This document shows, one piece after another, positions 833 to 20,740 of a DNA stretch of 64,000 nucleotides (position 1 is its first letter; every line of letters begins with the position of its first letter). Source of the stretch: a virus. The stretch spans positions 32,001-96,000 of the IMG/VR virus record IMGVR_UViG_3300049043_000070; one strand, written 5' to 3'. The notes beneath the pieces are model-generated. The model was not told where the DNA came from. It made no database searches and saw only the letters and a program-made list of their open reading frames with translations. A program made the position numbers and the translations under genes.

Positions 833-912
833 AGAACAGTTGAATAAGTGTCACATCGCAAGTCCTATAAGGTCTCAGAAACCTTGACCCCACCTACGCT
901 TTTCTCTACTAT
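833..912 (+). promoter_or_regulatory. palindrome copy P0 followed by canonical sigma70-type promoter
   Basis: AGAACAGT-TGAATA-AGTGTCAC at 833-854; TTGACC (884-889), 17 nt, TACTAT (907-912) upstream of ATG 941. Confidence 0.6.
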
Positions 913-940
913 ATACTAATAAGGCAATCCAAACAAACCA

Positions 941-1639
941 ATGACCAACTACGAAGTCCTTAAAAATCTCGCTACAGGTGTTTTAGATGATGTTAACCCA
1001 GGCAAGATCAGAATTTATCTAGATTCAAGCATATGGTTTAACGCAAGAAAATTACATGCCTTTAGTCAAGAAAAATCCTTTCTCTTCAATCATTTACGAA
1101 TCTCGACTTCGGAAATCAGACAGAAATTCTTGTTAATAAGATGGTTTCTCATCTGGGCATCAATCTCATCGAGGATGAAGTTATTGTTGTTGGCAAATAG
1201 AAGACAGGCAAGAAAGAAGGTCAAGAGTGGTAGAACTTAAGGTGATAAAAAAACGAATAAAGTTAAAGTTGGAAATAAAAATCTTGTCAAGTAGATCACT
1301 ATATTCGTATCAAGCGTAAAGATGGAGTTTGGAAGTTGTATTTGGAATCGAAATGGATCCTGTATTGCCACACGGAGGAAAAGGAGAATCTAATAGATAA
1401 AGTGTTAGCAGTTTGCGAAGACTCTTGGTGCTGATGAAGGAGTGTATTTTATTCCTGTATTGAAAACTATTCCTCCAGAACTTGCTGGCACAATGTCGCA
1501 GACATAAAAATTACTTGGAACTTCAAGATCTTCTCGATCTAGATTTCCAGATTGTCCGTTTACTGCTGATATGGTTTTTGAAGTGTATAAAGAGTTCGCT
1601 GAAGAATTTCTTGCTAAACTTGAAAAAGATGAAGTATGA
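941..1639 (+). CDS. putative PD-(D/E)xK restriction endonuclease-like protein (split by several indels)
   Basis: Joined frames give ...FGNQTEILVNKMVSHLGINLIEDE...VDHYIRIKRKDGVWKLYLESK...ADEGVYFIPVLKTIPPEL...LAKLEKDEV*; TGA overlaps the MTase ATG (ATGA at 1636-1639). Confidence 0.45.
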
Positions 1640-2525
1640 AACCTCTAAGTTAAGTATCAAGGTGGCAAATCTCGTGCAAGATTAAGATTATCTCAGCAGT
1701 TGATGCCCGAAAGAATACGATCGTATTGTGGAACCATTTTGTGGTGGCGCATGCCGCTTCTCTTTACTTCGAGAAACCAGCAGTGGTTTGTGAGTAGAAG
1801 ACTGGGAAGTCATTAACCTATACAAATCTGTTGCTGACAATCAAGGATTGCGTCGGAATTATGGTTTCCAAACTCATGAAATCAAACAGTATGATCATGA
1901 TAGGTTGGAGCAGAAAAGTATTATGCACCGTGCAGGGAGAATGATCAGACAAGGGGTTTGATCATGAGCGAGATGTTGAGTGGGCGAGAGCTCTTGCTTA
2001 TGTTGTTGTTCGTCAACTTTGTTTTAGTGGCATGGAGCGATATAATTCTAGTGGTGAATTTAATGTTCCATTTGGTCACTACAAAAATTTCTCCTGTGAC
2101 ATAGACTATGATAATTCTGGTCAGTATTGGAGTCTTTTACCAAATCCAAAATTATTCAGCGGTGATTTTGGAACTAGCACTCAATGAAGCAACTGAAAAT
2201 GACTTTGTACTCATTGATCCTCCTGATCTTGAACGTCTTGGGTATCATCAGTGGTGATGGAGGCGATGATGTCCACTCGTTGAGCCGTGAAAAGTTCTAA
2301 AGAATTCTTCATACAAATGGATGATTGTTCACTCTGACCATGAGTTCTATTCGTGAGCAATACAATGACTTCAACATATATGCGGAGGACTTTATACACT
2401 GTCAGCGATTTGGTTGGAGCAGGAAACCCATTCTAATGCCAAAGTTCAGCACCTCGTACATCACGAACTATCCAGTTGAGGAACTGGCACGCCCCACAGT
2501 GACGGACCACCTTGAGGATGTATGA
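1636..2525 (+). CDS. dam: Dam-like (D12 class) DNA adenine methyltransferase, frameshifted
   Basis: Joined frames: MKPLVKYQGGKSR, VEPFCGG (motif I), RYNSSGEFNVPFGHYK, IDPP (motif IV region), C-terminal HLYITNY; the 3' end reads through palindrome P1. Confidence 0.8.
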
Positions 2526-2526
2526 T
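2469..2526 (+). promoter_or_regulatory. palindrome/-10 cassette P1
   Basis: TATCCAGT-TGAGGA-ACTGGCAC, 30 nt, TATGAT. Confidence 0.7.
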
Positions 2527-2961
2527 GACAAGGGGAATTGCGAGACACCCATGCAACTCGTCCAAGGCGCCATGCAGGTTGTCAACTACACTACCCCGCT
2601 GCTGGTATGACCGATAAGTTCGTTCAAGTTGCACCTCGTTTGATGGTGCTGATGATCGAGCGAGCGTCTGATCTCCAAGCGTGATACGGAGCGTCAGGCG
2701 GATCGAGCGTATCAATCAGTGTGGTCATCAAGTGGTGAAGCTCCACGCCCAACCCCGTATCAAGATGATGGTGTGCTGCTGATGCTTACTGTTCTACTCT
2801 CCACCGTTCTGACGCACACAAGATCCATATGTTGCTCCTGAAAACATCCGCCGCCATTGTGCTATTGCTGTTGGCATTCCTTATGCTTTCAGACAACTTT
2901 ACCGACCAAGAGTGGTGGCAGTTCGTAGGACGCGTCCGTGGTCATTTGAAGATGCTCCAAC

Positions 2962-3247
2962 GTGTTTGAATTTCCGCACAAACCTCCGCAAGGTTATTCA
3001 TATGAGATCAGTGAGCACAAACGTAATGTGATTGCTATTTGGATTTGTAATCACGGCAAATTTAGCTGACACTGATGATAGTCCTGTTAAATCTATATGG
3101 GGATTTTATGATACCAAAAAAAGGTGTTATCATGCGCCTATTAACTCCACCAAGCATGGAGATAAGGTAGAGTTTGAGAAAACCACTCCATACTCTGCGA
3201 TGCTAATCAAAAAACCACTTCGCCCTTCCGTTCTTTCTTTCGTTTGA
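2962..3247 (+). CDS. hypothetical cyanophage-type protein (one indel)
   Basis: FEFPHKPPQGYSYEISEHKRNVIAIWICNH joined to SIWGFYDTKKRCYHAPINSTKHGDKV. Confidence 0.6.
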
Positions 3248-3249
3248 TC

Positions 3250-3781
3250 ATGAAATCTTTTTGGCAAGAAGTTCTTCTTCTCCCATATCAATCAAACTCT
3301 CAAGATAATCCTCTTCATGAACAACAGGTTCGTGAATTGCTTGATAAGTACGGATATACTTATGTGTATCAACCGAATGGATCTCAGGCATCACCTGATT
3401 TTCGTGTAACACTTCCCAGTGGTCAGTATTGTGGACATTGAATGTAAATCTTCCAGACAAACTTTTCCGACCTACAATGGAGGTCTTCCTAAAAAAGGTG
3501 TAGTCTATATTTTTAGTGCCAAGAAGTACAATGAAACTACAATCTTCTTTGCTGATGACATTGTAACGGACAGAAAACGTGATCTTTATTCTCAACTGGT
3601 CGAAGATCTCAACGCCGTGTTGAAGACATATCAACTGGATGAAAAATGGCAGAATGATCCTCGTGGATTTGACTTTTACATCCGTAACATGTATACTCAA
3701 ACTGGTAAAGGTAAAAGAGATTATTTCAAACACCCAGATCGCCAACACTGTGAACAAAATGTACTCAATTTTGACTGGTAA
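3250..3781 (+). CDS. putative type II restriction endonuclease (PD-(D/E)xK), one indel near 3420
   Basis: QPNGSQASPDFRV...IVDIECKSS catalytic-like motif; overlaps the downstream MTase by 23 nt. Confidence 0.65.
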
Positions 3782-4626
3782 TTGCCAAGAAGTTCTCTCT
3801 ACCTATGATGAGAACTCATTTCATTCATGTATTACTGATCCTCCCTACGGTATGGGTATGGATCACTGGGATCATTCTGTGCCCAGTGTAGATATCTGGC
3901 GTGAAGTGTATCGTACACTGCGCCCTGGAGCGTTTTGTCTTGCTTTCTGCTCACCTGAGTTGTATCATCGGTTAGCAGTGAATGTTGAAGATGCTGGATT
4001 TCAAATCAAAGACCAGATTATGTGGATGACTACCACAAAAATGCCAAAGTTTAATCGTTTAAAACCAGCACATGAGCCAATTGTTGTGGCACAAAAACCA
4101 TATGAAGGTACTTTAAAAAGTAATCATGAAGAATTGGGGATGTGGTCTGATTGATACAGAGAATACCCGTGTGCCCTGGGAGAAAGAACCACCCAAAGGT
4201 TGGGTTGCTCAAGGTGCCAAGCGTCGTACATTTGGTCGTGATGGTAACACTACTGGTAGTGGTGCTGAGTATGGAACTGTAGATGCTAATCCAGCTGGTC
4301 GTTATCCTTCTAATATCATTGGTGAGGTAGAACCAGAACATCAAAAGTATTTTTATGCTCCGCGAGCAACGCGGAAAGAAAAAGGAGTAGATAATGATCA
4401 CCCCACAGTCAAACCACTCAGTTTGATGGAATACCTTATCAGGATCTATTCTCCAGTTAATTCTACTGTTTTGGATCCATTTTGTGGTAGTGGCAGCACT
4501 GGTGTTGCTGCTGTTCGGACTGGACGCCAATTTGTTGGTGTTGACCTGGAAACACATTATTGCCAGCTTGCCCAGGATCGTATAGCATCTGAGATGCGCC
4601 TGGAAGCGCCTGTAACCCCCCTCTAA
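3759..4626 (+). CDS. beta-class N4-C/N6-A DNA methyltransferase, one indel near 4130
   Basis: MYSILTGNCQEVL...CITDPPYG (motif IV), LKPAHEPI, HPTVKP, TVLDPFCGSGSTGVAA (motif I). Confidence 0.9.
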
Positions 4627-4631
4627 CCCCT

Positions 4632-4826
4632 ATGACCTACCCTTGCCCCTCTGTGGTCACCAACGTGACCCTGGACACCCAGCAGATCAAGTTTCTGATT
4701 GACCTGATGTGGGGACACGATGCCCGTGATGCCCGCAAGACAGCGAAGCACCATGGCGTTGATGACATCGCTGTGCAGTGCCAGTTGTGGAACTGTCTAC
4801 AGAGTGCCCTTGCTGAGCTGGATTGA
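4632..4826 (+). CDS. hypothetical protein; C-terminus encoded by cassette P2
   Basis: 64-aa ORF. Confidence 0.55.
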   Translation: MTYPCPSVVTNVTLDTQQIKFLIDLMWGHDARDARKTAKHHGVDDIAVQCQLWNCLQSALAELD

Positions 4827-4835
4827 CCCTATAAT
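4778..4835 (+). promoter_or_regulatory. palindrome/-10 cassette P2
   Basis: GTGCCAGT-TGTGGA-ACTGTCTA, 30 nt, TATAAT. Confidence 0.75.
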
Positions 4836-4863
4836 TACAAGGTAATCAACGGAGCACCACCCC

Positions 4864-5007
4864 ATGTGGGACGAAATCCAAGATATGCCTGCTGAGATCT
4901 TTGACATCTCTGACGAAGATCGTGATGAGAACGGCGAAGTTTTTGCCATGTCTGAAGAAGAGTATTTTGAATACTGGAACCCAGAATGTGTTGCTTACGC
5001 TAACTAA
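4864..5007 (+). CDS. small acidic hypothetical protein (47 aa)
   Basis: MWDEIQDMPAEIFD... directly downstream of P2. Confidence 0.55.
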   Translation: MWDEIQDMPAEIFDISDEDRDENGEVFAMSEEEYFEYWNPECVAYAN

Positions 5008-5170
5008 TTATGAAAACTCAAACTTGGTTCTTTTTAGTCATCGCCATTCTGATGTGGAATGGTATGCTGATCAAACGAGATCAGCAGATGTTTGAGGCAT
5101 ACGACCGAGCGTGTGCTCAACTGCCTCAAGGTCACCCCGATTGTCGTTATTCACCTTATCACAAATAATC

Positions 5171-5302
5171 ATGGAAGAAGTTTTGCTTGATCGTTACATT
5201 CTGGATCAACTGGACAAGTATGATCTAGACCTGTCTGAGCACGAATGGGATAGTGATGTGCCAGTTGAACAACTGTCCCCAGAGGCGCTAGAGCTGCTCT
5301 GA
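5171..5302 (+). CDS. small acidic hypothetical protein
   Basis: MEEVLLDRYILDQ...DSDVPVEQLSPEALELL; C-terminus reads through P3. Confidence 0.5.
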   Translation: MEEVLLDRYILDQLDKYDLDLSEHEWDSDVPVEQLSPEALELL

Positions 5303-5314
5303 TTGCCCTATACT
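5258..5314 (+). promoter_or_regulatory. palindrome/-10 cassette P3
   Basis: GTGCCAGT-TGAACA-ACTGTCCC, 29 nt, TATACT. Confidence 0.75.
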
Positions 5315-5341
5315 GATTACATCAGCGAAAGACACCACGCC

Positions 5342-5695
5342 ATGACCACCACCTTCGCCCAGTTCGCTTCCGAGCAAACCGCCCGTAACACCATTCAACT
5401 CAACATCGTCAAGTATTGCTTGATGCTCTGTGATGCTCTCAAGCAGGTTGCTCCTGATGGTTACGGTTATGAACTGAATAGCTCTGGTCGTAAGTATCAC
5501 AAAATCTACATGTGTATCAACGGTCAGCGTGATAGCATCCACGCTTTTATTGACAAGACCAACGGTTATGTGTACAAACCTGCTAGCATCAAAGCTCCTG
5601 CCAAAGGTGTACGCTACAACCTGCTCGTTATGAGCGAGCGTGAGCAGATGCTTGAGAAGTGTGACTGGGCAGGCGGTTACCTTTACATGCGGTGA
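5342..5695 (+). CDS. hypothetical phage early protein
   Basis: GRKYHKI...SIHAFIDKTNGYVYKPASIKAPAKGVRYNL...CDWAGGYLY, a motif pattern I recognise from phage hypothetical proteins. Confidence 0.75.
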   Translation: MTTTFAQFASEQTARNTIQLNIVKYCLMLCDALKQVAPDGYGYELNSSGRKYHKIYMCINGQRDSIHAFIDKTNGYVYKPASIKAPAKGVRYNLLVMSEREQMLEKCDWAGGYLYMR

Positions 5696-5698
5696 TGC

Positions 5699-5727
5699 TT
5701 GACATTCCGCATCATCCCTGCTAAATT
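5699..5727 (+). promoter_or_regulatory. sigma70-like early promoter
   Basis: TTGACA (5699-5704), 17 nt, TAAATT (5722-5727). Confidence 0.65.
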
Positions 5728-5749
5728 ATCTACAGAGTTCGTCTTTACC

Positions 5750-5977
5750 ATGCACTACATCGTTACTAACGGCAACGCATACGCTATTGATCACCCGCAA
5801 GATGCCATTTATGGTGCTCCTGTGCTTGAAGATGGTACTGTTGATTGGGATGGTTCATACGACATTGTGTGGGACTATCTTGGTGAAGAAGAGCGTGAGT
5901 ATGTAGCTCACCTTGCTTATCATCTTCAAGAGATTGCTAAACTGTCAGAAGAGCACACGGAGGTGTTTGTCAAATGA
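5750..5977 (+). CDS. hypothetical protein
   Basis: MHYIVTNGNAYAIDH...; follows the promoter. Confidence 0.65.
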   Translation: MHYIVTNGNAYAIDHPQDAIYGAPVLEDGTVDWDGSYDIVWDYLGEEEREYVAHLAYHLQEIAKLSEEHTEVFVK

Positions 5978-6229
5978 AGTACAATCCACTGGTTGAATAC
6001 ATCCAGACGTTGGTAGAACCATTCCCCAATCGTTATACGATGGGTGAATATAGTATCAGTGTGGCACCACGTCAAGACCTGACATATGAGGAGAATGCCA
6101 AATACTGGCGCGTATTCAGTAGATTTCCTGAATGAATTTGCTGCAGCACTTGCCAGATCGCTTCCTCGTGATGTAGAATTCAAGTCTTACGACCACCTCC
6201 AGAACAAACTTACACTTTTTAAGAAATGA
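5974..6229 (+). CDS. hypothetical protein (one indel)
   Basis: MKYNPLVEYIQTLVEPFPNRY...EFAAALARSLPRDVEFKSYDHLQNKLTLFKK; ATGA overlaps at both ends. Confidence 0.55.
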
Positions 6230-6552
6230 ACAATGAAGACTGCCTGCGTATCTCTGAATACCGTGATGATGTGTATGACTGGGCGTGTACCCGCTTTAAG
6301 CAATTGATTGCTGAGGGTGACAATGACCATGCGTTAGCACTTGCTGACGAGTTCTTTGAGTGGTTGGATCCAGAACAGCTAAGATAATGAGGTGACTTTG
6401 TTTTTTAATGAGGATGAACTTAGAGAACACTACGCAGAAATCAGTCAGTGGTCTTAGATCACTGATTATGAATTATATTAAGGCATATAACAACGATAAT
6501 CATTCTCTTGCTGAACAGTTACTTTTTCAAATAAAGACCATCCGAGAAAAAA

Positions 6553-6723
6553 ATGAAAGTAACAATTGAACTTGGAGAAGATCTACAGGAAGAGTATTTG
6601 TCCTGGATTGCCGTCAAAGATAGTTTGAAGATTGACAAGACCATCAACTCCTTTCTATACTACACATATTATTATGGAACATTCAAGAACCCCAAAAATC
6701 CAGACGATGTGGAGGAGCAATGA
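6553..6723 (+). CDS. small hypothetical protein, possibly ribbon-helix-helix-like
   Basis: MKVTIELGEDLQEEYLSWIAVKDSLKIDKTINSFL; the fold suggestion is weak. Confidence 0.45.
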   Translation: MKVTIELGEDLQEEYLSWIAVKDSLKIDKTINSFLYYTYYYGTFKNPKNPDDVEEQ

Positions 6724-6995
6724 GCGAAATTCCTAATTTTAAAAATGGTGACGATGAAAACTTCTTTTATGATATTTTTGATGAGAAACTAATCCAGTAC
6801 AAGTTCTTGCTGGATAAAGTTCGTGACACGATGTTTGCTGGAACTGGAAACGGATCTTACGCAAACGTTCCTGGATCATTTTTGGATGTTCTTCATCGGA
6901 TTACCAGAGATCTATTGTATGATACTTGTGACCGATTTGAAGAAGAAAAACCAGAATACAAAAAGAATGTCAGGTTAACATGCGAAATGACCTGA
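6720..6995 (+). CDS. hypothetical protein
   Basis: 91-aa ORF. Confidence 0.65.
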   Translation: MSEIPNFKNGDDENFFYDIFDEKLIQYKFLLDKVRDTMFAGTGNGSYANVPGSFLDVLHRITRDLLYDTCDRFEEEKPEYKKNVRLTCEMT

Positions 6996-7080
6996 TAACC
7001 AAAGATGAACTCAAACAGAATATCAAAGAAGCTTTGAAAGAAGTTTCACCTGAAAATTTATCGCTATTTACTCTCGGTTC

Positions 7081-7341
7081 ATGACAATCTCTGTAATTGA
7101 AAACACTGATGGCACGTTCACAATCGACTGGGACGAAAACGACCCCAAAGAAAAAGTCCTCAACGACTGGACAGAAGAAGACTTCATCGAGTGTATCCGC
7201 TCGCACTGCGAAAAAATTATCGCAAAATCTGACGACCCTGACAACGAGCAAGTCGCCATCGAAGACGCCATCCAAGCGCACATCGACGCCCAAATTAGAA
7301 AAGACGAAGACCCAGAAAACGTCCCTCGTCTATTCTTCTGA
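7081..7341 (+). CDS. acidic hypothetical protein (overlapped by a second ORF)
   Basis: MTISVIENTDGTFTIDWDENDP... Confidence 0.6.
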   Translation: MTISVIENTDGTFTIDWDENDPKEKVLNDWTEEDFIECIRSHCEKIIAKSDDPDNEQVAIEDAIQAHIDAQIRKDEDPENVPRLFF

Positions 7342-7493
7342 TCTGGAATTGTTTCCATACGTGGATACATTTCCATATCGTCTAGAAGATCAATCCGAAA
7401 AGAAAACCTGTTATTTCCAATGTGAAGAGCCATGCTAGAAAGTACATCGAACGATACAAACCAGAATACAGATTATACTGTTACACTAGATGA
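7097..7493 (+). CDS. basic hypothetical protein (one indel near 7430)
   Basis: K/S/T-rich N-terminus, then FPYRLEDQSEKKTCYFQCEEHARKYIERYKPEYRLYCYTR* after removing one extra C. Confidence 0.55.
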
Positions 7494-7626
7494 AGATGAG
7501 AATGGTGATCTGTTTATGCCCATTCCAGCAGATTTCCTCACTGAACTTGGTTGGACTGAAGATGATTTGCTGGAATGGATTGTAGAAGGTGACCAAATTA
7601 TCCTCCGTAAGGTAGAAGAAGAGTAA
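7432..7626 (+). CDS. AbrB/MazE/SpoVT-like DNA-binding protein
   Basis: YTVTLDEDENGDLFMPIPADFLTELGWTEDDLLEWIVEGDQIILRKV fits the swapped-hairpin pattern (G-x-I-x-IP...LG...D-x-L...I-x-L-x-K). Confidence 0.6.
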   Translation: MLESTSNDTNQNTDYTVTLDEDENGDLFMPIPADFLTELGWTEDDLLEWIVEGDQIILRKVEEE

Positions 7627-7631
7627 ATGTC

Positions 7632-8042
7632 ATGGGCATGTTTGATTACTTCAGATCATCATATGATCTTGGACCACAACTCACAAATGTAGAGTGTCAG
7701 ACAAAAGATATTGAAGATGGTATTGGTGGTACGATGACACAATACTGGTTGGATCCTGCTGGTTACCTGTATTACATTGATTACTCACATACACTCGACT
7801 TGAAGATCTATGAACCAGGGGATCCAGAGTATAATGAAGAACGATCATGGTTGAACTTTGAATGGGTGCCAAATGGTACTCGTGGTAGGGTAAATATATT
7901 TCTGCTCACCAAATATGTTGAAGTCTACACATCAACATGGGGTGGTGCGTGGGAAGACTGGCCTCGTGCTAAAATACATTTCAAACATGGCAGGTTGATT
8001 GACTATGAGCTTTTCACTCGTAACACTAAAACACAGGAATGA
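7632..8042 (+). CDS. hypothetical phage protein
   Basis: MGMFDY...CQTKD... 136-aa ORF. Confidence 0.75.
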   Translation: MGMFDYFRSSYDLGPQLTNVECQTKDIEDGIGGTMTQYWLDPAGYLYYIDYSHTLDLKIYEPGDPEYNEERSWLNFEWVPNGTRGRVNIFLLTKYVEVYTSTWGGAWEDWPRAKIHFKHGRLIDYELFTRNTKTQE

Positions 8043-8298
8043 TTGGGGTAATGACTGGTACATCCAGATCATCAATACTGGCACACATTTCCCCAGACCA
8101 CTTAGGAAGAAATCACTACTACAGGTGTCATTATCATGGAACGATGATCACTGTTGGCCATATCTACAGATCAATTCTGGTGGTGGCACATTGTTTGGCA
8201 TGATGTTCTGGGTGTATAAGTTTGGATTTGACATTAGCATTTGGAGCAGAACTTGGACCTGGGAACATCTGAGAGATAAAGCAAATGAAACTGTTTGA
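7999..8298 (+). CDS. aromatic-rich hypothetical protein (paralog of the next gene)
   Basis: DWGNDWYIQII...LLQVSLSWND...WPYLQINSG. Confidence 0.6.
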   Translation: MTMSFSLVTLKHRNDWGNDWYIQIINTGTHFPRPLRKKSLLQVSLSWNDDHCWPYLQINSGGGTLFGMMFWVYKFGFDISIWSRTWTWEHLRDKANETV

Positions 8299-8561
8299 TT
8301 ACTACCACTACGAAGATTATGGGCACGAATGGTATTTCCAGTTGCTCTCAGTTTATCCACACTTCGCACTGATTAGATTGTGTCATTCAGTGGGATGAAT
8401 ACCCAGCAACAGAAGTATTCCCCATGCTACTGATTAGCTTTGGTAGTAGATCAGTCACAGGGTTCTCATTCCGCTGGAAGTGGTTTGAAATTCGCTGTGA
8501 TTTTCTCACATCAGAACCACGCAACTTCAACAAATACCATCGTAGAGACACATACCTATGA
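8285..8561 (+). CDS. aromatic-rich hypothetical protein, frameshifted
   Basis: DYGHEWYFQLL...IQWDEYPATEVFPMLLISFGSRSVTGFSFRWKWF. Confidence 0.5.
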
Positions 8562-8930: not shown

Positions 8931-8968
8931 TAAGAAAGCACTGGATATTATGTGGACAGTGGCAACGA

Positions 8969-12134: not shown

Positions 12135-12157
12135 ACTCTCATACACAACAGAAACCG

Positions 12158-13362: not shown

Positions 13363-13504
13363 CTGACGAACAAATTGAAATTCTACGATCACTAATCAAA
13401 GCAGAAGTAGAGCTGGGACTACAAAATGAAAATGGATATATGTGGGCATTTGAACAAGAGAAATCAAATGACCAGGCATGGGAAACATTCAAGGAGACAT
13501 TCAA

Positions 13505-13930
13505 ATGACTGAACCACTACACGCAAAAGTAACAGACGAAGACTTCCAAAAGATTGTTGAGGCATTTGATAATCCTCAACCATATCCAGAGGAAATGTTG
13601 GATGCTGCACGCACAGCAAACAAAGAACGTGAAAAGGAAGAATGGGAACGCAAAGTGAGAAGTGATCGTATTCTTCAACGATACAACACTTACCATAATC
13701 TTGAAACTTCTGGACTTCCTCACGGCACACCAATCACACCAGAACAGCAACAAATGATTGCGTTTCGTTCTATGATTGATGCCTTTAAGTGTGACCATCT
13801 CAATCAAGAATACACTCATATTGCGATTGATGATATTGAGGATTTGATTGAGGGACTTTATCAACAATCTATTGCTTTCTTGGACAGAGTTAAAAAACTT
13901 AAAAAATCAAGGTATAATACTAATGACTGA
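13505..13930 (+). CDS. hypothetical protein with a DUF1778/TacA-like N-terminal motif
   Basis: KVTDEDFQKIVEAFDNPQPYPEEMLDAAR. Confidence 0.6.
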   Translation: MTEPLHAKVTDEDFQKIVEAFDNPQPYPEEMLDAARTANKEREKEEWERKVRSDRILQRYNTYHNLETSGLPHGTPITPEQQQMIAFRSMIDAFKCDHLNQEYTHIAIDDIEDLIEGLYQQSIAFLDRVKKLKKSRYNTND

Positions 13931-14419
13931 ACCATTTTATCGTTTCTTTGTTGTAGATTATTGTGCCACTGGTGAAGGTAGATCTATTTGGTTGAGAATT
14001 TGTCGTTACTATGAACCTTACGATGGTAGGGATCGTGAAAAAGAACGGTGGGAAAAGTTTGTTGGTCATGAATACTATCTTCAGTGTTCAGAAGAACCAA
14101 CAGAAGAAGAATTCTTCAAAAAATATGACAATCTCATTCCAGAACGTGTTAGAATGATGGTTGAGAAGCGTGACCAACCAATCTTTACCTGGGAAACACA
14201 TTACCATTTTAATTACTCATGAACGACAAAACACTCTACAATCCAGATGAATTTCTGCTGGATAATATCAAGAGCTATCACTATGAGGTGATGGATGAAG
14301 GGCATCATGTGTGGATGGCATTCTATCTTGAGAATGGTAACACAGGGCACTTGAATATTTTCCTGAATGCTGGTAGAATACAGACACGATATGAGGAATG
14401 GGATGAAACGCTGGATTGA
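13923..14419 (+). CDS. two hypothetical ORFs (13923-14222, 14219-14419)
   Basis: YRFFVVDYCATGEGRSIW...; ATGA overlap. Confidence 0.6.
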
Positions 14420-14735
14420 AGATTCACTCTGGGCAATCAGAAATTGTTTCTCATTTAGGTTTATACATTATGATGATAACATTGATCGGTTAGCATTCTT
14501 TGAAGAAATCAATTGTGGTTGGTATCAAATGTATATCTACCCCTATGATGATCTCTATGTACCAATCATATCAGAAGAAAGAAGATTACGGTTAGATCAG
14601 CATCCCATCACATTCTATGTGACACAAGAAGAATTTTATGATATGATGGATATGATTGAAAATCCACAACCAATCTCATCACAACTCAAACAACTGTTAG
14701 AAAGACAACCACCATGGGATACAAATCATGACTAG
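14403..14735 (+). CDS. hypothetical protein with a DUF1778/TacA-like C-terminal motif
   Basis: ITFYVTQEEFYDMMDMIENPQPISSQLKQLLERQPPWD. Confidence 0.6.
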   Translation: MKRWIEDSLWAIRNCFSFRFIHYDDNIDRLAFFEEINCGWYQMYIYPYDDLYVPIISEERRLRLDQHPITFYVTQEEFYDMMDMIENPQPISSQLKQLLERQPPWDTNHD

Positions 14736-14977
14736 AGCACAACAAACAAAAGAAGAATTACTCTACCCAACACCATCAATTAATCCAGATGCTGATCTAA
14801 GTTTTCCCAGAAATTGCTCAAACAAATAATCTCAACAATTTCTCTCATCATGTTAGCTATCTCGCCAATCTTGTTATTGGTGGTAAGATTAAACCAGATG
14901 AAGCATATAAAGAGATTAAGAAACTGTATAAAGCATTAAAGCATTCACATAAGTCACTTAATGGTTCATGGTTCTGA
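14728..14977 (+). CDS. small helical protein resembling a cyanobacterial conserved hypothetical family (one indel)
   Basis: LLYP...NNLNNFSHHVSYLANLVIGGKIKPDEAYKEIKKLYKALKHS. Confidence 0.55.
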
Positions 14978-15361
14978 TATGACACTTAGAGCACAACAAT
15001 TCATGGATGAAGTCTGGCATGAACGTAATACATGGGCAGATACAGAAACTAAACTTGTTGCCGCTATCATTCGTAAACTCCTTACCTCATGCTAAAACAT
15101 ACACAGCATCAACACTCAATAACCTAGAAGTGATTGATAAGAATGATCTCATTACTCTATCAGTAGAACTAGAAAAGTTATGATCACATTCTCACAAACA
15201 TGTCATCAACCATACGATAGACATAAGTACAAACTGTTTCTCACTAATGGTAAGGTAGAACAGTATGAACATTATGAAGATGTACAAGTACGATGGTTTC
15301 AAACACCAAAACAATTTCTTCTCACATTGAAGTGATAGATAGAAAGAAAAAGAAATGACTA

Positions 15362-15532
15362 ATGATTGATGAGAATACACCTTACAAACTAGCAGAAATC
15401 ATACGAAATACATGGCCTCAGTTGTTTCGTCATAAGAAGGTTGTTAATGATAATCAACAAGATGTTACGCACTGCTCCGCACCAGTGATACCAAGGGTTC
15501 TCAATAATAAAGACCTTATTGATAATCATTAG
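15362..15532 (+). CDS. small hypothetical protein (56 aa)
   Basis: MIDENTPYKLAEIIRNTWPQLFR...; its 3' half overlaps an inverted-repeat structure. Confidence 0.5.
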   Translation: MIDENTPYKLAEIIRNTWPQLFRHKKVVNDNQQDVTHCSAPVIPRVLNNKDLIDNH

Positions 15533-15591
15533 TAAGAAATAGTTAAAAAAATATGGTATATGTGAGCGAATGAAGATATTAGAGAGATATT

Positions 15592-15640
15592 GTGCGGTGG
15601 AGAGAGTTAAGGTGCGGTAGTGACTAGTAAGGTGCGGTGG
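15592..15640 (+). repeat. three GTGCGGT(G/A)G direct repeats with an exact 20-bp period
   Basis: copies at 15592, 15612 and 15632; inverted CCGCAC at 15477-15482. Confidence 0.75.
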
Positions 15641-15684
15641 AGATGTTGGCTTAGCGTGCTTGCTACCGAAAGTCAACTGAGTGT

Positions 15685-15742
15685 GTGCCAGATCTCAAAG
15701 TGTCACATAGACCCTCAGAGACCCTCCCAGATGCCCTATACT
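15685..15742 (+). promoter_or_regulatory. palindrome/-10 cassette P8
   Basis: GTGCCAGA-TCTCAA-AGTGTCAC, 30 nt, TATACT. Confidence 0.8.
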
Positions 15743-15768
15743 ACCTAGGTAATCAAAAGACATCCCAG

Positions 15769-15942
15769 ATGCTCACTAAGATCCAGACCATTGAGACTGA
15801 CCTCTCCCCTCAAGAGAAGATTGCCCTAGATGATCTGAAAGTTTGTGAGGCGTTCATGGAAGCACGTAAAGCAGGTGACAAGCAGACTGCCCTTCAGTAT
15901 GCTAAAGTGATGATGCTGAAAGCTTTCAACACTGGTTTCTGA
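15769..15942 (+). CDS. small hypothetical protein
   Basis: MLTKIQTIETDLSPQEKIAL... after P8. Confidence 0.6.
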   Translation: MLTKIQTIETDLSPQEKIALDDLKVCEAFMEARKAGDKQTALQYAKVMMLKAFNTGF

Positions 15943-15944
15943 AG

Positions 15945-16095
15945 TTTTCCACAACCTGTGGAAACTGTGGAAACTGTGGAAAACTCAAAATCTTAAAAAT
16001 CTCATTTTTTTGATTTTTTGAGTTTTTTAGAAATCTTAGAATTTAACTTTTTTAGTTTTTTAAGATTTTTCATTTTTTTACCAATTAAACTTTAA
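15945..16095. other. four DnaA-box-like 9-mers followed by a phased T/A-tract AT-rich segment
   Basis: TTTTCCACA at 15945-15953 (+); TGTGGAAAC at 15957 and 15966; TGTGGAAAA at 15975-15983 (perfect on - strand); then T-tracts about every 10 bp. Confidence 0.6.
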
Positions 16096-16109
16096 AGATT
16101 AACACACAC

Positions 16110-16358
16110 ATGACGAAATCATTTCAAAAGCTTAATAGTTCTGCTATTAATAGTGTAGAAGTAGATGAAAATGTAGTTAAAGTAGTGTATAATAGTAACT
16201 TAGATAAAGAATATACATTTAACTGTGAAAATGTAGAAGAATTTGTAGAGAATTTGAGTAAAGAACTTGTAGATATTGAACTAGACAACAATAAAGGATC
16301 TGTTGGTCGTTTTATTAACCAACAGATCAAATCTGGTGTTCTAGTTCAATCTAAATAA
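16110..16358 (+). CDS. KTSC-domain-like protein
   Basis: NSSAINSVEV...VKVVY...EYTF...GSVGRFINQQIK resembles the KTSC pattern SS-x-I...Y-x-Y...S-x-G-x-F-x-N-x-x-IK. Confidence 0.5.
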   Translation: MTKSFQKLNSSAINSVEVDENVVKVVYNSNLDKEYTFNCENVEEFVENLSKELVDIELDNNKGSVGRFINQQIKSGVLVQSK

Positions 16359-16392
16359 TCACACACAATTTGAGTAACTAAGACCAGAAACA

Positions 16393-16554
16393 ATGACCAA
16401 ACAAAACTATCGCTACAACAACAACGATAAGTTTAAACAATTTGATGAAGATTTTGAAGACTATGGATACGATGTAAAGAATATTCGTAGGCAGACTAAA
16501 AAGAAAGTTACCAAATTTAAGCGTGAAGTAGATGAATGGTATGACAGTTATTGA
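16393..16554 (+). CDS. small hypothetical protein
   Basis: MTKQNYRYNNNDKFKQFDEDFEDYGYD...; stop lies in the P9 spacer. Confidence 0.55.
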   Translation: MTKQNYRYNNNDKFKQFDEDFEDYGYDVKNIRRQTKKKVTKFKREVDEWYDSY

Positions 16555-16598
16555 AGTGGCACAGTAGTCTCCCAATTGCCCCTGATCTGACCCATACT
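16541..16598 (+). promoter_or_regulatory. palindrome/-10 cassette P9
   Basis: ATGACAGT-TATTGA-AGTGGCAC, 30 nt, CATACT. Confidence 0.75.
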
Positions 16599-16623
16599 AC
16601 CTAAGTCAACCGCAATTCAACCA

Positions 16624-16953
16624 ATGCGAGTTATCGAACGCAAGATGAACGCTGCCATTCACGCTGGCAAAGATTTCAAACTTGATAACACTCAAGTGGT
16701 TTCGTACACTAACAGCTCTGATGTGTACCTGCATGGTAATCTGATTGCTCGTGTGGGTGAGACTTGGGTGGAGATCTTTGATGGTGGTTGGCAATCTAAC
16801 ACCACCAAATCTCGCCTGAATGCTATTCTGCGTGAGCATGGTTGCCCTGGTGATTGTGTCTTCCAGAAGAACTATACGTGGTTTGTGACTTTCACAGATT
16901 GTAAAAATCAGAAAGTTACTGTTCCTTTCTTTTCTGGTATGCGTTTGAATTAG
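16624..16953 (+). CDS. hypothetical phage early protein
   Basis: MRVIERKMNAAI...VYLHGNLIA...DGGWQSNTTKSRLNAIL. Confidence 0.75.
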   Translation: MRVIERKMNAAIHAGKDFKLDNTQVVSYTNSSDVYLHGNLIARVGETWVEIFDGGWQSNTTKSRLNAILREHGCPGDCVFQKNYTWFVTFTDCKNQKVTVPFFSGMRLN

Positions 16954-16962
16954 TGAAATTTC

Positions 16963-17047
16963 AAAATATCGGAAATCTCAATATTTTCATTTTATTGGGA
17001 TTTCCGATATTTTTATAAATTATAAATTATAACTTATAACTTATAAT
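16963..17047. repeat. 21-bp-arm inverted repeat followed by five 7-nt TTATAA(A/C/T) tandem repeats
   Basis: AAAATATCGGAAATCTCAATA (16963-16983), 9-nt loop, TATTGGGATTTCCGATATTTT (16993-17013), one mismatch; tandem repeats at 17013-17047. Confidence 0.85.
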
Positions 17048-17100
17048 AGGTTATATGTTATAATATACTATTAACATATTAATACTCAAAGAGGTTTATT

Positions 17101-17232
17101 ATGACTATTCAAGAGATGTATCAAGAGATGAAAGAACAAACTCTAGAAGATATCTTGAATGGATATAGTGATCTAGATATCTACGATGATAACTATACTA
17201 TCGTAGATATTGATTATACTACTCAAGAATAA
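17101..17232 (+). CDS. small acidic low-complexity protein (43 aa)
   Basis: MTIQEMYQEMKEQTLEDILNGYSDLDIYDDNY...; AGAGG upstream. Confidence 0.4.
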   Translation: MTIQEMYQEMKEQTLEDILNGYSDLDIYDDNYTIVDIDYTTQE

Positions 17233-17253
17233 TCAATATTGTCAAGCTATATT

Positions 17254-17311
17254 GTGCCAGTTTCTGAACTGTCCACTATCACTTGAAACTGGCACAGTTT
17301 GCTGCCATACT
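17254..17311 (+). promoter_or_regulatory. palindrome/-10 cassette P10
   Basis: GTGCCAGT-TTCTGA-ACTGTCCA, 30 nt, CATACT; TTGAAA at the -35 position (17283-17288). Confidence 0.8.
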
Positions 17312-17332
17312 AACAACATCAACACAAATCCG

Positions 17333-17566
17333 ATGAACCTGAAGATCACTCACATCGTCTTTGATTGTACCTGTGACGATGAAGATTGGACCGATTATGA
17401 TGCTATTGAAACTGCCGACATGTTGGCATCTCGTTATGTAGAAACTGTGTGGGCAGTTGATAACGAAGATGATCTCGTTGAGTTTGTATCATCTAAGTCG
17501 GGATGGTGTATCAATGAGATAGATTATGTGCCAGTAAATGAAGTGGCACAGTATCCTACCAAATGA
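17333..17566 (+). CDS. acidic hypothetical protein; C-terminus VPVNEVAQ encoded by P11
   Basis: MNLKITHIVFDCTCDDEDW... Confidence 0.65.
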   Translation: MNLKITHIVFDCTCDDEDWTDYDAIETADMLASRYVETVWAVDNEDDLVEFVSSKSGWCINEIDYVPVNEVAQYPTK

Positions 17567-17585
17567 CCCTTAGGGGTGCCATACT
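17528..17585 (+). promoter_or_regulatory. palindrome/-10 cassette P11
   Basis: GTGCCAGT-AAATGA-AGTGGCAC, 30 nt, CATACT. Confidence 0.85.
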
Positions 17586-17606
17586 TAACAAGTCAACACA
17601 AAACAC

Positions 17607-17732
17607 ATGCCTGACACTTACAATTTCACTGGCGATGGTGTTACTTTCCTTGGTTTGGTTGGTGTTATCTCCACCGCCATTATCATCGTAACTGCCTTCA
17701 CTCGTTACTACAATTCTCCCCTTCGGAAATGA
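17607..17732 (+). CDS. small single-TM protein (41 aa)
   Basis: MPDTYNFTGDGVTFLGLVGVISTAIIIVTAFTRYYNSPLRK. Confidence 0.6.
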   Translation: MPDTYNFTGDGVTFLGLVGVISTAIIIVTAFTRYYNSPLRK

Positions 17733-18527
17733 ACACTCAACTTCTTTCTGTTCGTGAGCAAATCCAACAGGACATTCTCACTTACGCTTCATTCATTGAT
17801 GATGAGAAAATCTTTTTTAATGATGAAGTTTTAGTTGAACTTTGTGAGATTGTTGTCCGTAACTTTGAGAAACTGAACTGATTATGTACCGTACACTTTC
17901 TGAACTTCGTGATAGCATCAACAGTATGATTGATGCTCAAGGTGAAGATGCTGCCTGTGCTGCATTTGTATTCACTCAACACGATGTCTTTGAGTTCAAC
18001 GAAGACACTAACCAAGACGACTATTTCTCTACACTTTTCACTCAAGATGTGCTCGCTGATGTAGGTGGTTCCGACTACATTTACGAACAGGTTGGTGAGA
18101 TGATTGATGATGCGATTCGTCTCCGTAAAAAACTTCCCCTCTACGCTAACTGAACCATGAGCAACACTTTTGACCGTCAGGCACTCGTTGAAGCATACAT
18201 CGACCGCCTGCTTGATAACATGAGCACCAAAGATTTGCTGCAGATTGTTGGTGACCAGATGGAAGAAAACATCACCAGCTATACTGATGAGGAACTGATT
18301 TCTGAGGTTGAGTCTTACTATCCTGATTTGTTGGAGGATTGATGATGACTGACCCAAACCAACTCAATCTCTACAAAATGTACGATCACCTAAATCAAAC
18401 TTGCAAAAAGTGTGGTGAAGGTTACTATAAAGAAACGAGCATTCATGATGATTGGGATGGTGTTCTTCATTGCTCTAAGTGTGCTCATGAAGTGAAACGA
18501 CACATAAAAGTTTGGGACACAAAGTAA
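17729..18527 (+). CDS. run of hypothetical ORFs (17729-~17881, 17884-18153, 18157-18342, 18342-18527; the last has a CxxC...CxxC Zn-ribbon-like motif)
   Basis: packed + strand ORFs; CKKC...HCSKC in the last. Confidence 0.6.
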
Positions 18528-18551
18528 CACAAACTGGGCGGCCGCTTCGCT

Positions 18552-18609
18552 GTGCCAGTTGGCAGACTGTCCACCAATCCCCCCAGACTGCCCCTGGGGG
18601 TGCCATACT
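18552..18609 (+). promoter_or_regulatory. palindrome/-10 cassette P12
   Basis: GTGCCAGT-TGGCAG-ACTGTCCA, 30 nt containing hairpin CCCCAG/CTGGGG, CATACT. Confidence 0.8.
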
Positions 18610-18615
18610 AGTCTC

Positions 18616-18780
18616 ATGAAAACAAACAACCCCTACGTCGCTCAGATCCTCGCTAAGGGTCGGGACTATGTGCCCACCCCTGCCCCTAAGGCAGAGTACC
18701 CCCGTACCATCCATGGTCGGGTCTTTGAGACTGAGGCAGACTATCAGGAAGCGATGGCAGACTTCCTAAACGGTCTGTGA
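18616..18780 (+). CDS. small hypothetical protein
   Basis: MKTNNPYVAQILAKGRDY...; stop lies in the left arm of P13. Confidence 0.65.
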   Translation: MKTNNPYVAQILAKGRDYVPTPAPKAEYPRTIHGRVFETEADYQEAMADFLNGL

Positions 18781-18834
18781 CACTTGCGGGGGTGTCCACT
18801 GATGCCCCCATCCTGCCCAAATCCATTCTATCAT
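18777..18834 (+). promoter_or_regulatory. palindrome/-10 cassette P13
   Basis: GTGACACT-TGCGGG-GGTGTCCA, 30 nt, TATCAT. Confidence 0.7.
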
Positions 18835-18855
18835 TCTCTCAGTTCAAACAAACAA

Positions 18856-19284
18856 ATGTCTGTCACCTTGACCGCTAACTATAAAGAAGTGCTCTCTGCC
18901 GATGCTGTAGAGAAGGTGGATGAGTTGCTCGAAGAGAATTATGCTCTCGACGACATGTTGGAGTTCATTGATAACTACAACGAAAACGATTTTGTTGCCT
19001 ATTATGAAGAGTATGTGCGCTGTGGTGAAGCGATCGGTTATGATGCCGTTGATGCTTTGATCGGTGAGATGGGTTGCGTTTCTGACATCGAAGGGTGTGA
19101 TGAACGCTACCGTGGTTGTTACGAATCCACCGCTGATTTTGCTGAAGAGTTTTACAACGACATCAGCGATGTGCCCTCTGCTTTGGTGATTGATTGGGAG
19201 GCGACCTACGATAGTTCGCTGCGCTACGATTTCACCGCTTGTGAAGTGAAGTATCGTGTGGTCTACATCTTCAGCGACTACTGA
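18856..19284 (+). CDS. ardA: ArdA-like anti-restriction (DNA-mimic) protein
   Basis: RYRGCYESTADFAEEF...DVPSALVIDWEATY...LRYDF matches the ArdA C-terminal pattern; about 35 D/E versus 8 K/R in 142 aa. Confidence 0.65.
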   Translation: MSVTLTANYKEVLSADAVEKVDELLEENYALDDMLEFIDNYNENDFVAYYEEYVRCGEAIGYDAVDALIGEMGCVSDIEGCDERYRGCYESTADFAEEFYNDISDVPSALVIDWEATYDSSLRYDFTACEVKYRVVYIFSDY

Positions 19285-19360
19285 TCTTCACCCCACAAAG
19301 TATACCTAACTCACCATGACGCATTTTACCATGCCCACCCTGCCCGTGATCCGTCAGCGA

Positions 19361-19418
19361 GGGACACTTGCCGAACTGGTCTACCTGTGGGCGATGCAGC
19401 GCCTGGGGTCTGTAGGAT
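19361..19418 (+). promoter_or_regulatory. palindrome/-10 cassette P14
   Basis: GGGACACT-TGCCGA-ACTGGTCT, 30 nt, TAGGAT. Confidence 0.65.
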
Positions 19419-19439
19419 ACGATCAAACAAACAAACCAC

Positions 19440-19628
19440 ATGACCAAGACAGAAGCAACCGCCCTCGCCATCGCCATCGTTCACAGCAACTGCCCCAACG
19501 CTGCCAACGGGCATGTGCGGATGCTGCATCAGACCCCTGAGGGTGCTGAGATGCTGCGCCTGATTGTTCGTGATGATCTCTGCGGTGCTGCTGACATCAT
19601 CGCCAACGCCCTGTGGCACAATCTCTGA
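19440..19628 (+). CDS. hypothetical protein
   Basis: 62-aa ORF; stop lies in the P15 spacer. Confidence 0.6.
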   Translation: MTKTEATALAIAIVHSNCPNAANGHVRMLHQTPEGAEMLRLIVRDDLCGAADIIANALWHNL

Positions 19629-19672
19629 ACTGTCCACCATCCCCCAGGATCTGACCCCAGACCCTGTAGGAT
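19615..19672 (+). promoter_or_regulatory. palindrome/-10 cassette P15
   Basis: GGCACAAT-CTCTGA-ACTGTCCA, 30 nt, TAGGAT. Confidence 0.65.
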
Positions 19673-19695
19673 ACAAACAACAAAGCAAACACCCC

Positions 19696-19872
19696 ATGTC
19701 GTTTCTCGCCAAATCAATTCTGGTCATGCTGATGGGCAGCGTGACCATCGTGGCAGGTGCCCACGTCATGGATGCCGCCCTTAAAGTTCGGGATAAGATC
19801 GACCATCGCAACGCCCTAACCTGCCAGCAGATCAACGAGATCACCCCTGGAGGGTGCCACATGGGCAAGTGA
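19696..19872 (+). CDS. small protein with an N-terminal hydrophobic segment
   Basis: MSFLAKSILVMLMGSVTIVAGAHVMDAAL...CQQINEITPGGC. Confidence 0.55.
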   Translation: MSFLAKSILVMLMGSVTIVAGAHVMDAALKVRDKIDHRNALTCQQINEITPGGCHMGK

Positions 19873-19911
19873 CCACCAGCCCCCAGGATCTGACCCCAGA
19901 CCGTCTAGACT
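19854..19911 (+). promoter_or_regulatory. palindrome/-10 cassette P16
   Basis: GTGCCACA-TGGGCA-AGTGACCA, 30 nt, TAGACT; spacer shares CCCCAGGATCTGACCCCAGACC with P15. Confidence 0.7.
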
Positions 19912-19935
19912 GATCACAACGAAACGAAACGACCC

Positions 19936-20127
19936 ATGACCGTTCGAACCAACGTGCTTCCCCTTGACCTCTGCACCGTCACCCTGACTGAGGCGCAGTG
20001 GTCTACGATCCGAACCGCTTTGCTGTGTCTCGCTTGCGACTGCCGTGTTGCTGGCAAGTCTACCGACGCAGACTACTACCTGAACGCTTACAACAACCTG
20101 AAGGCAGCGATGGGGATGGACGCCTGA
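19936..20127 (+). CDS. hypothetical protein
   Basis: 63-aa ORF; stop lies in the P17 spacer. Confidence 0.6.
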   Translation: MTVRTNVLPLDLCTVTLTEAQWSTIRTALLCLACDCRVAGKSTDADYYLNAYNNLKAAMGMDA

Positions 20128-20175
20128 GGCACTGTCCACCAGCTGCCCCATCGGGCACTGCTGACCCCTTATACT
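20117..20175 (+). promoter_or_regulatory. palindrome/-10 cassette P17
   Basis: TGGACGCC-TGAGGC-ACTGTCCA, 31 nt, TATACT. Confidence 0.65.
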
Positions 20176-20196
20176 GATCACATCAGCAAACGACAC

Positions 20197-20465
20197 ATGA
20201 CCAACACCCTCAGCACCTACAACGGTTGGGCAACCTACGAAACCTGGAATGCCGCCCTGTGGATTGGCAATGATCAATTCCTCTACAACACCGCTAAGGC
20301 ATGTGTAGAGTACTGCGGCGATGATGAGACCCCTTGGGATAAGTTCGTTCGCTGCATGACCGATGGCATCATCGGGCGCCACCTTGTTCAGACCCGTGAC
20401 GGTGTGCGTTGGAATTCCCCGCCATTGATGCAGATGAGATGAACGAGATGATGGCAGAGCTGTGA
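20197..20465 (+). CDS. hypothetical phage protein with a YNGWxxYETWNxALW motif (one indel near 20425)
   Basis: TYNGWATYETWNAALWIGND...; corrected C-terminus PAIDADEMNEMMAEL*; stop lies in the left arm of P18. Confidence 0.7.
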
Positions 20466-20520
20466 CGATCGAAGGGGTGGCACAGTCTGCCCCCGATCTC
20501 CCATCCTGACCCTGTAGACT
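20462..20520 (+). promoter_or_regulatory. palindrome/-10 cassette P18
   Basis: GTGACGAT-CGAAGG-GGTGGCAC, 31 nt, TAGACT. Confidence 0.65.
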
Positions 20521-20526
20521 AACAGC

Positions 20527-20721
20527 ATGAACAAACAACCCCTCCAACAGCAAGGCGCCTTCCTGGTCAACGAGACCGCCGCCAACGACCCCATCATCCA
20601 GCAGGTGATGGCATCCTACATGGAGCGCCTCGCCCAAGAGGCAGCATACCGCGAGGATGTGCGCTCTGGCAAGGTCGCCCCTGTCCAGACTGGTAGCTGG
20701 CACATCAGCGACCGCCACTGA
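20527..20721 (+). CDS. hypothetical protein
   Basis: 64-aa ORF; 3' end contains P19. Confidence 0.6.
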   Translation: MNKQPLQQQGAFLVNETAANDPIIQQVMASYMERLAQEAAYREDVRSGKVAPVQTGSWHISDRH

Positions 20722-20740
20722 GGGGTCGCCCCTGTAGACT
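20682..20740 (+). promoter_or_regulatory. degenerate palindrome/-10 cassette P19
   Basis: TGTCCAGA-CTGGTA-GCTGGCAC, 31 nt, TAGACT. Confidence 0.55.

Follow-up and report, generated by a model that had tools for sequence, protein, structure and literature searches.

The stretch analysed here (the window) comprises 64,000 nucleotides (nt), bases 32001-96000 of the 186,293-bp virus genome IMGVR_UViG_3300049043_000070 from IMG/VR, which is estimated to be ~96% complete. The window DNA matches Synechococcus myoviruses, with S-PM2 and S-RSM4 as the best matches, and we assign the phage to the T4-like cyanomyoviruses (Kyanoviridae) near these two. From 1 to 21 kb the window contains many small open reading frames (ORFs) on the plus strand, and baseplate and giant fibre genes follow from ~22 kb on; the gene order is that of Syn9, with gp55-gp98 followed by gp99 (gp25-like), gp100 (gp6-like) and gp101. 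The small-gene region is punctuated by 19 copies of a cassette in which a 22-bp palindrome stands about 30 nt upstream of a -10 box. All 19 precede small ORFs (2.4-20.8 kb) upstream of the baseplate and fibre genes, which mirrors the position of Syn9 gp55-gp98 upstream of gp99 and gp100. We propose that these cassettes are early promoters in which the palindrome would act as the operator of a dimeric host protein, and we note that its half-site and its distance from the -10 box are shared with the yfr2 small-RNA promoters of the host.

The repeated cassette and its anatomy

Searched with the degenerate pattern GTGMCAST-N6-ASTGKCAC, allowing at most two mismatches, the window yields 11 matches against 0.10 expected from shuffled sequences, and a symmetric position weight matrix (PWM) of the palindrome, built from 14 copies and applied at a score of at least 10, gives 26 matches in the 186-kb genome against ~0.6 in shuffles. 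A two-block model that joins this matrix to a PWM of the -10 box at a gap of 29-31 nt identifies exactly 19 cassettes on the plus strand of the window (2469-20740), where shuffled sequence gives ~1, and none in 20741-64000, ~43 kb of structural genes; neither shuffled sequence nor the structural region holds the motif at a comparable frequency. The gap is 30 nt in 13 cassettes, 31 nt in five and 29 nt in one. The minus-strand matches are the same palindromes read backwards and have poor -10 scores, and all cassettes are therefore plus-oriented. A preliminary description of this DNA had listed 19 copies with the same split of gap lengths, which the two-block model reproduces exactly, and the -10 hexamers that it named (TATAAT, TATACT, CATACT, TAGACT, TAGGAT, TATGAT and TATCAT) are all seen. 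Its statement that no copy follows 21 kb holds within the window, but the copy set does extend beyond the window, with ~7 more copies elsewhere in the genome at positions 6008, 30644, 122046, 124759, 129892, 132244 and 159991. The copies at 6008 and 159991 have a palindrome and a good -35 (TTGACA) in the gap, and are hybrids of cassette and canonical promoter.

The leftmost cassettes are widely spaced. Cassette 1 (2469-2526) has a weak left arm, TATCCAGTT, and a -10 box TATGAT at a gap of 30 nt; cassette 2 (4778-4835; gap 30 nt, TATAAT) is followed by an ATG at 4864, and cassette 3 (5258-5314; gap 29 nt, TATACT) by an ATG at 5342 that opens the gene of a DUF7717 protein. Cassette 4 (8969-9027; gap 31 nt, TATGAT) precedes an ATG at 9074. 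The next three carry hairpins in the gap: cassette 5 (9487-9544; gap 30 nt, TATACT, ATG 9567), cassette 6 (10789-10846; TATAAT), with a terminator-like hairpin at 10811-10832 and a T-run, and cassette 7 (12076-12134; gap 31 nt, TATAAT, ATG 12158), whose hairpin is also terminator-like. Cassettes 8 to 11 all have a gap of 30 nt; cassette 8 (15685-15742) has the -10 box TATACT and an ATG at 15769, and CATACT is found in cassette 9 (16541-16598; ATG 16624, Kyano_Gp96 family), cassette 10 (17254-17311; ATG 17333), which has an extra AACTGGCAC-A-GTT element in the gap, and cassette 11 (17528-17585; ATG 17607).

The remaining eight lie within 18552-20740, one per gene, in agreement with the rise in density that had been described for 18.5-20.7 kb. 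Five of these have a gap of 30 nt: cassette 12 (18552-18609; CATACT, ATG 18616), cassette 13 (18777-18834; TATCAT, ATG 18856), cassette 14 (19361-19418; TAGGAT, ATG 19440), cassette 15 (19615-19672; TAGGAT, ATG 19696) and cassette 16 (19854-19911; TAGACT, ATG 19936). The gap is 31 nt in cassette 17 (20117-20175; TATACT), a TGGAC...GTCCA variant before the ORF 20197-20442 (DUF7249), in cassette 18 (20462-20520; TAGACT, ATG 20527) and in cassette 19 (20682-20740; TAGACT), which has a weak left arm and precedes the ORF 20767-20955. A further, atypical copy at 833-916, which the preliminary description had set apart, is real: TTGACC (884-889) stands between the palindrome (833-854) and the -10 box TATACT (911-916), which starts 56 nt after the palindrome, and an ATG follows at 941.

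In consensus form the cassette reads GTGcCAGTT-N4-AACTGtCAC; a C-rich but otherwise unconstrained stretch of 30 nt leads to cTATAcT, after which comes a weakly conserved ACATCAAC. The palindrome is thus made of a left half-site L, GTGNCAGTT, and its reverse complement R, AACTGNCAC, in the layout L-N4-R, and the gap between it and the -10 box has a low information content. A canonical sigma-70 promoter has a -35 like TTGACA 16-18 nt upstream of the -10 box, and most cassettes do not. As the preliminary description had observed, a recognisable -35 is mostly missing; only four of the 19 (2469, 9487, 10789 and 12076) reach a match of at least 4/6 at that distance. Hairpins of -8 kcal/mol or lower occur in 10 of 23 gaps genome-wide against 15% of shuffled gaps, four of them with a T-run and hence terminator-like, and in 5 of 12 gaps of P-SSM2; the remaining gaps of the phage have no such hairpin. 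Because a terminator can occupy the -35 position, this position would not be read by sigma.

Downstream of the -10 hexamer, the first ATG that opens an ORF of at least 30 aa lies 21-28 nt away in most copies, and the sequence before it is A/C-rich and has no Shine-Dalgarno motif. Cassettes 18552 and 20462 are different, and because their ATG is only 6 nt past the hexamer (18604-18618 and 20515-20529) their messages may be leaderless. On the upstream side, the TGA stop of the preceding ORF sits inside the left arm (GTGACA or ATGACA) at 9488-9490, 10790-10792 and 12077-12079, as for the ORFs 9074-9490 (cassette 5) and 10376-10792 (cassette 6), so that operator and coding sequence overlap; at cassette 16541 the stop of the preceding ORF is in the spacer before the right arm.

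The two arms do not behave as the strands of a stem. Positions 4 and 19 are complementary in 6 of the 19 copies against a chance expectation of 8.5, positions 7 and 16 in 9 of the 19, and two copies do not fold. Because the arms vary independently at these positions, we read the palindrome as two half-sites and not as a hairpin, in other words as a predicted protein-read operator. Each arm is conserved as a copy of a single half-site, a pattern that a dimeric DNA-binding protein would be expected to produce.

Ten of the ORFs behind cassettes were scanned, and seven are in PHROGs, mostly with function unknown and including the DUF7717, Kyano_Gp96 and DUF7249 proteins; ORF 20527-20721 matches phrog_14769 over its full length from the ATG at 20527. 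ORF 18856-19284, behind cassette 13, encodes an ArdA-like anti-restriction protein, and anti-restriction is a typical immediate-early function. This gene lies in a GC-rich island at 18000-22000 (GC 0.49-0.51, against 0.33-0.46 elsewhere), in which small genes have one cassette each, the variant -10 boxes TAGACT and TAGGAT occur and the TGGAC...GTCCA arm variant is found. The island could be a recently acquired set of gene cassettes. The region also contains two near-consensus sigma-70-type promoters that lack a palindrome, at 613-641 (TTGACA-N17-CATAAT) and 6632-6661 (TTGACA-N18-TATACT), and these possibly represent a 'host-like' promoter class within it.

Other phages and known regulatory elements

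The same cassette is present in Syn9 at 43114, 44775, 47205, 48559, 49079, 51001 and 52997, before small genes of the cluster at 43-53 kb, with a few copies elsewhere; Syn9 has ten copies and P-TIM40 has eight at 47-57 kb, with six perfect copies within 50-55 kb. It is found too in P-SSM2, in S-PM2 and, more sparsely, in P-HM2. Among IMG/VR sequences the exact 16-base pattern occurs in at least 120 contigs. In 111 of the 130 exact palindromes among the IMG/VR matches listed, [T/C]AnnnT is present at 29-31 nt on one side (control offset, 34), and the PWM has 614 matches in 1.09 Mb of the IMG/VR loci listed. In the P-TIM40 cassettes (47000-57000) the palindrome is followed, ~10 nt on, by an additional conserved box, CACTACC; because it is absent from Syn9 and from the phage studied here, it would be a lineage-specific element at the -35 position. 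Low-GC hosts and P-TIM40 both have ATTAG in the right arm, but P-SSM2 contradicts the co-variation between Prochlorococcus phages and hosts that this had suggested.

Doron and colleagues reportedly mapped transcription start sites in Syn9 and P-TIM40 in 2016 and described a 'novel regulatory element' that controls early genes; this element is reportedly abundant among T4-like cyanophages, with no binding protein named. The phage family is the same (Kyanoviridae), and the cassette precedes the small genes of Syn9 (43-53 kb) and of P-TIM40 (48-55 kb). On the strength of its presence in Syn9 and P-TIM40 we take the cassette to be, very probably, that early-gene element. The cassette is thus very probably not new as a class, and the window adds a member of a known early promoter element of T4-like cyanophages. 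From the synteny with Syn9 and from what the 2016 study reportedly found we infer that the cassette genes are expressed early.

The preliminary description had compared the cassettes with the promoter/stem-loop cassettes (PeSLs) of T4-type phages, and this analogy stands for the design but not for the sequence. PeSLs too are short composite elements at the edges of small genes in variable regions; in them an early promoter is joined to a terminator stem-loop (Arbiol 2010; Comeau 2014; PMC4122927), as it would be in those cassettes whose gap holds a hairpin. The two have no sequence likeness. Where a cassette has a hairpin, it lies within the promoter and separates the operator from the -10 box, and most cassettes lack the -35 element that T4 early promoters have. 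The T4 genome contains 4+2 loose matches to the motif against 3+2 for a control pattern, which is background level. Activator sites of the CRP/FNR family in cyanobacteria, those of NtcA and CRP, resemble the operator in being two-fold symmetric, ~22 bp long and placed upstream of a -10 box in promoters whose -35 is weak or absent. Their consensus sequences differ, however (GTA-N8-TAC, at -41.5, for NtcA and TGTGA-N6-TCACA for CRP), and the phage site is centred near -53.5 instead of -41.5 or -61.5; GTGNCAGTT-N4-AACTGNCAC fits neither pattern, in line with the earlier view that this is not an NtcA site, and the candidate reader discussed below belongs to the GntR family and not to the CRP family.

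A shared half-site in host yfr2 promoters

Host yfr2 loci were located with the Rfam model RF01701 (Cyano-1). Five marine Synechococcus genomes have 2-4 loci apiece, and of 41 genomes of the same family 39 have such loci, with 15+29 Cyano-1/Yfr2 loci found. Forty-three of the yfr2 loci have a recognisable -10 box and form the test set, for which the top-scoring phage-PWM match within 90 nt was taken. In 34 of the 43 this match (left arm GTG[A/C]CAGTT) begins 51-54 nt upstream of the -10 box, compared with 51-53 nt in the phage. Twenty host loci score at least 7, of which 19 have a gap of 29-32 nt, and the background at this score is 4 in 111,925 flanking positions. When expectation-maximisation (EM) was used to find motifs in the host promoters alone, it gave CACTGTGACAGT, the phage left arm with CAC in front, at the same distance, and cassette arms account for 16 of the best 40 matches to the host-derived 8-mer in the phage genome. 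For a clean scan of the whole genome this short host PWM is not strong enough, its threshold lying at the noise level, and only its overlap with the cassette arms is informative. Phage operator and host yfr2 promoters share a half-site and its register within a geometry of 22 bp, 30 nt and a hexamer.

A regulatory element is already described for yfr2 promoters. Lambrecht et al. 2018 (PMC6191309) named a 21-22-nt palindrome CGRE1, located 55-57 nt from the start site, and a pull-down that compared a yfr2 promoter with a version carrying a shuffled CGRE1 recovered the GntR-family protein PMM1637, a homologue of PlmA; PMM1637 raises reporter output in Escherichia coli, and its R50A mutant loses both gel shift and activation. 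In the real promoters examined here CGRE1 takes the form AACTGNCAC-N-GTGNCAGTT(G), for example in loci L116, L124, L251, L259 and L272, and its proximal edge lies at about -55 if transcription starts 7 nt past the hexamer, which agrees with the published position (PMC6191309). The reverse order GTTG...CAAC was rejected, as it is not enriched in hosts and no Rfam family is found there; the promoters show CAAC...GTTG.

CGRE1 and the phage operator are built from identical 9-bp half-sites (GTGNCAGTT and AACTGNCAC), and in both the L arm is 52±2 nt before the -10 box. Their layouts differ, the host element being an everted dyad R-N1-L and the phage operator being L-N4-R with no R arm upstream of L. 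They also differ in number, with 2-5 such promoters per host genome and ~26 copies in the 186 kb of the phage. In most host yfr2 promoters L is followed 4 nt further on by a degenerate arm (AGCGCC or TAGAG), here termed R', and several host promoters (L253, L268 and L277) have no upstream R arm, so that L-N4-R' would be the more general unit in hosts.

A second class of yfr2 promoters (L119, L120, L121, L123, L125, L254 and L265) has a CGRE1 dyad that spans the -35 position and ends 7 nt before the -10 box. Three of these loci (L119, L120 and L254) have in addition a phage-like palindrome further upstream, ~31 nt before the -10 box. This class is probably the '-20' case reported for yfr2a of MIT9313 (Lambrecht et al. 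2018). Host sites other than yfr2 that have GTGCCAGTT 42-45 nt before TAnnnT are present at G002:C1:1747200-1747256, G001:C1:2396778-2396834 and G005:C6:830953-831009, and are possible further members of a host regulon.

Candidate readers of the operator

We hold it highly probable that the cassettes are early-class promoters dependent on a factor bound upstream. In the explanation that we favour, the cassette would be a unit of ~80 bp that begins with the two-half-site operator GTGNCAGTT-N4-AACTGNCAC at roughly -64 to -43, continues with 30 bp that occupy the place of the -35, have no sequence requirement and often contain the terminator of the upstream gene, and ends with the -10 hexamer and a short A/C-rich leader without a Shine-Dalgarno motif, the ATG being 21-28 nt past the -10 box. 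The hexamer would be read by the host RNA polymerase carrying its main sigma factor, and a dimeric host protein on the operator, centred near -53.5, would replace the -35 contact and recruit the polymerase. Since host polymerase and a host protein would suffice, the genes could fire once the DNA enters the cell, and a host factor fits because early genes must fire before any phage protein exists. The preliminary description had proposed a dimeric-activator operator, host- or phage-encoded, that replaces the -35 and defines an early regulon, and the arms, the spacing, the free -35 position, the small-gene setting and the likeness to yfr2 promoters all favour such an arrangement. The operator would copy the upstream element of the yfr2 promoters, and PlmA, the single GntR regulator of the host, is therefore the leading candidate for its reader. 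The five marine Synechococcus genomes encode exactly one GntR domain each that passes the Pfam cut-off, within an ORF of 334-356 aa (PMM1637 has 323 aa). We infer the start sites, activation rather than repression, and PlmA as the binder. The explanation as a whole, comprising early cassettes, a -10 box for host sigma, a dimeric host protein and PlmA as its foremost candidate, seems to us probable, whereas for the identity of the factor with PlmA (the PMM1637 homologue) we would put the chances, on present sequence comparisons, just short of even.

Several observations weigh against this explanation. The link to early expression draws on the presumed identity with the element of the 2016 study. 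The full phage palindrome is not enriched in the five host genomes, and in the host genomes searched the right arm is not matched at the spacing from the -10 box that it has in the phage; the phage site is for both reasons not a literal copy of the host site. The layouts share the L arm only, and a rigid dimer is unable to read both. Because the phage has L-N4-R where CGRE1 has R-N1-L, binding of PlmA to the phage layout is hypothetical. The promoter of yfr5 in Prochlorococcus MED4, which has half a CGRE1, is neither shifted nor activated by PMM1637, and activation by this protein is known from the E. coli reporter only (PMC6191309).

The operator could instead be read by another host component, either a different transcription factor or, in the manner of an UP element, the alpha subunits of RNA polymerase; the likeness to yfr2 promoters would in that case reflect a shared factor that is not PlmA. 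The position of the site, ~-64 to -43, matches that of UP elements, and the retention of L-N4-R' in yfr2 promoters without an upstream R arm (L253, L268 and L277) indicates that the unit common to phage and host differs from the dyad tested with PMM1637. UP elements are A/T-rich, however, while the phage site is G/C-rich and two-fold symmetric, and it was PMM1637 that was pulled down with CGRE1 and that loses shift and activation when R50 is replaced (PMC6191309); we consider this alternative unlikely. Less likely again is that a protein of the phage reads the palindrome, whether an activator delivered with the virion or an early-made repressor that closes the early class at the onset of middle expression. 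Phages commonly place their own operators in early promoters, and the Syn9 annotation holds a 'transcriptional regulator', gp230. Against this, host yfr2 promoters have this half-site at an equal distance from the -10 box in phage-free genomes of 28-70% GC, and early genes fire before a phage protein exists unless it is packaged; no GntR domain was found among the phage proteins in a screen for DNA-binding proteins that covered the GntR family only, and for a repressor a site at -53 is poorly placed for occlusion.

The cassettes, which sit at gene borders, could also be mainly mobile promoter-terminator modules of the PeSL kind, the repeats providing short homology for gene shuffling and regulation being secondary. 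The presence of one cassette for each gene of the GC-rich island (18.5-20.7 kb), the terminator hairpins inside cassettes and the overlap with upstream stop codons are all in keeping with this, and the PeSL literature provides a precedent (PMC4122927). Such mobility leaves the fixed 30-nt distance, the independent conservation of the half-sites and the matching host promoter unexplained, and, being compatible with a regulatory function, is no true alternative; as the principal explanation we regard it as quite improbable. The palindrome could instead be an RNA or DNA hairpin with a role in termination, in processing or in stabilising the 3' end of the upstream message, since it is found at the 3' ends of upstream ORFs and some copies fold, down to -8.9 kcal/mol. 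The scarcity of complementary changes between the arms and the two copies without a fold led us to reject this, and in addition the host counterpart is asymmetric and the real terminator hairpins are separate, in the gap; we give it next to no credence.

Returning to a dimeric host protein as the reader, what is new beyond the literature that we found is the half-site and register shared with yfr2 promoters, which would name a testable reader; no link between PlmA and cyanophage promoters was found in the literature searched. The T4 proteins MotA and AsiA are absent from T4-like cyanophages (PMC5780444). The cassette offers a practical marker for annotating early genes in contigs of uncultured cyanophages, and a compact promoter-terminator part for the genetics of marine Synechococcus. 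We know of no factor that has so far been named as reading the early promoters of T4-like cyanophages, which destroy a large part of the principal primary producers of the ocean. In the host, high light and nitrogen stress are signals to which PlmA responds, and it is tied to PipX-PII signalling. Tentatively, and short of expecting it to hold, we suggest that T4-like cyanophages may mimic yfr2 promoters, with ~10-30 early promoters per genome switched on by PlmA and the onset of infection coupled to the light and nitrogen status of the host. If so, binding to the many phage sites could also draw PlmA away from yfr2. Early phage transcription, with PlmA as the reader, would then hinge on a light- and nitrogen-responsive regulator, which would bear on the light and nutrient dependence of infection.

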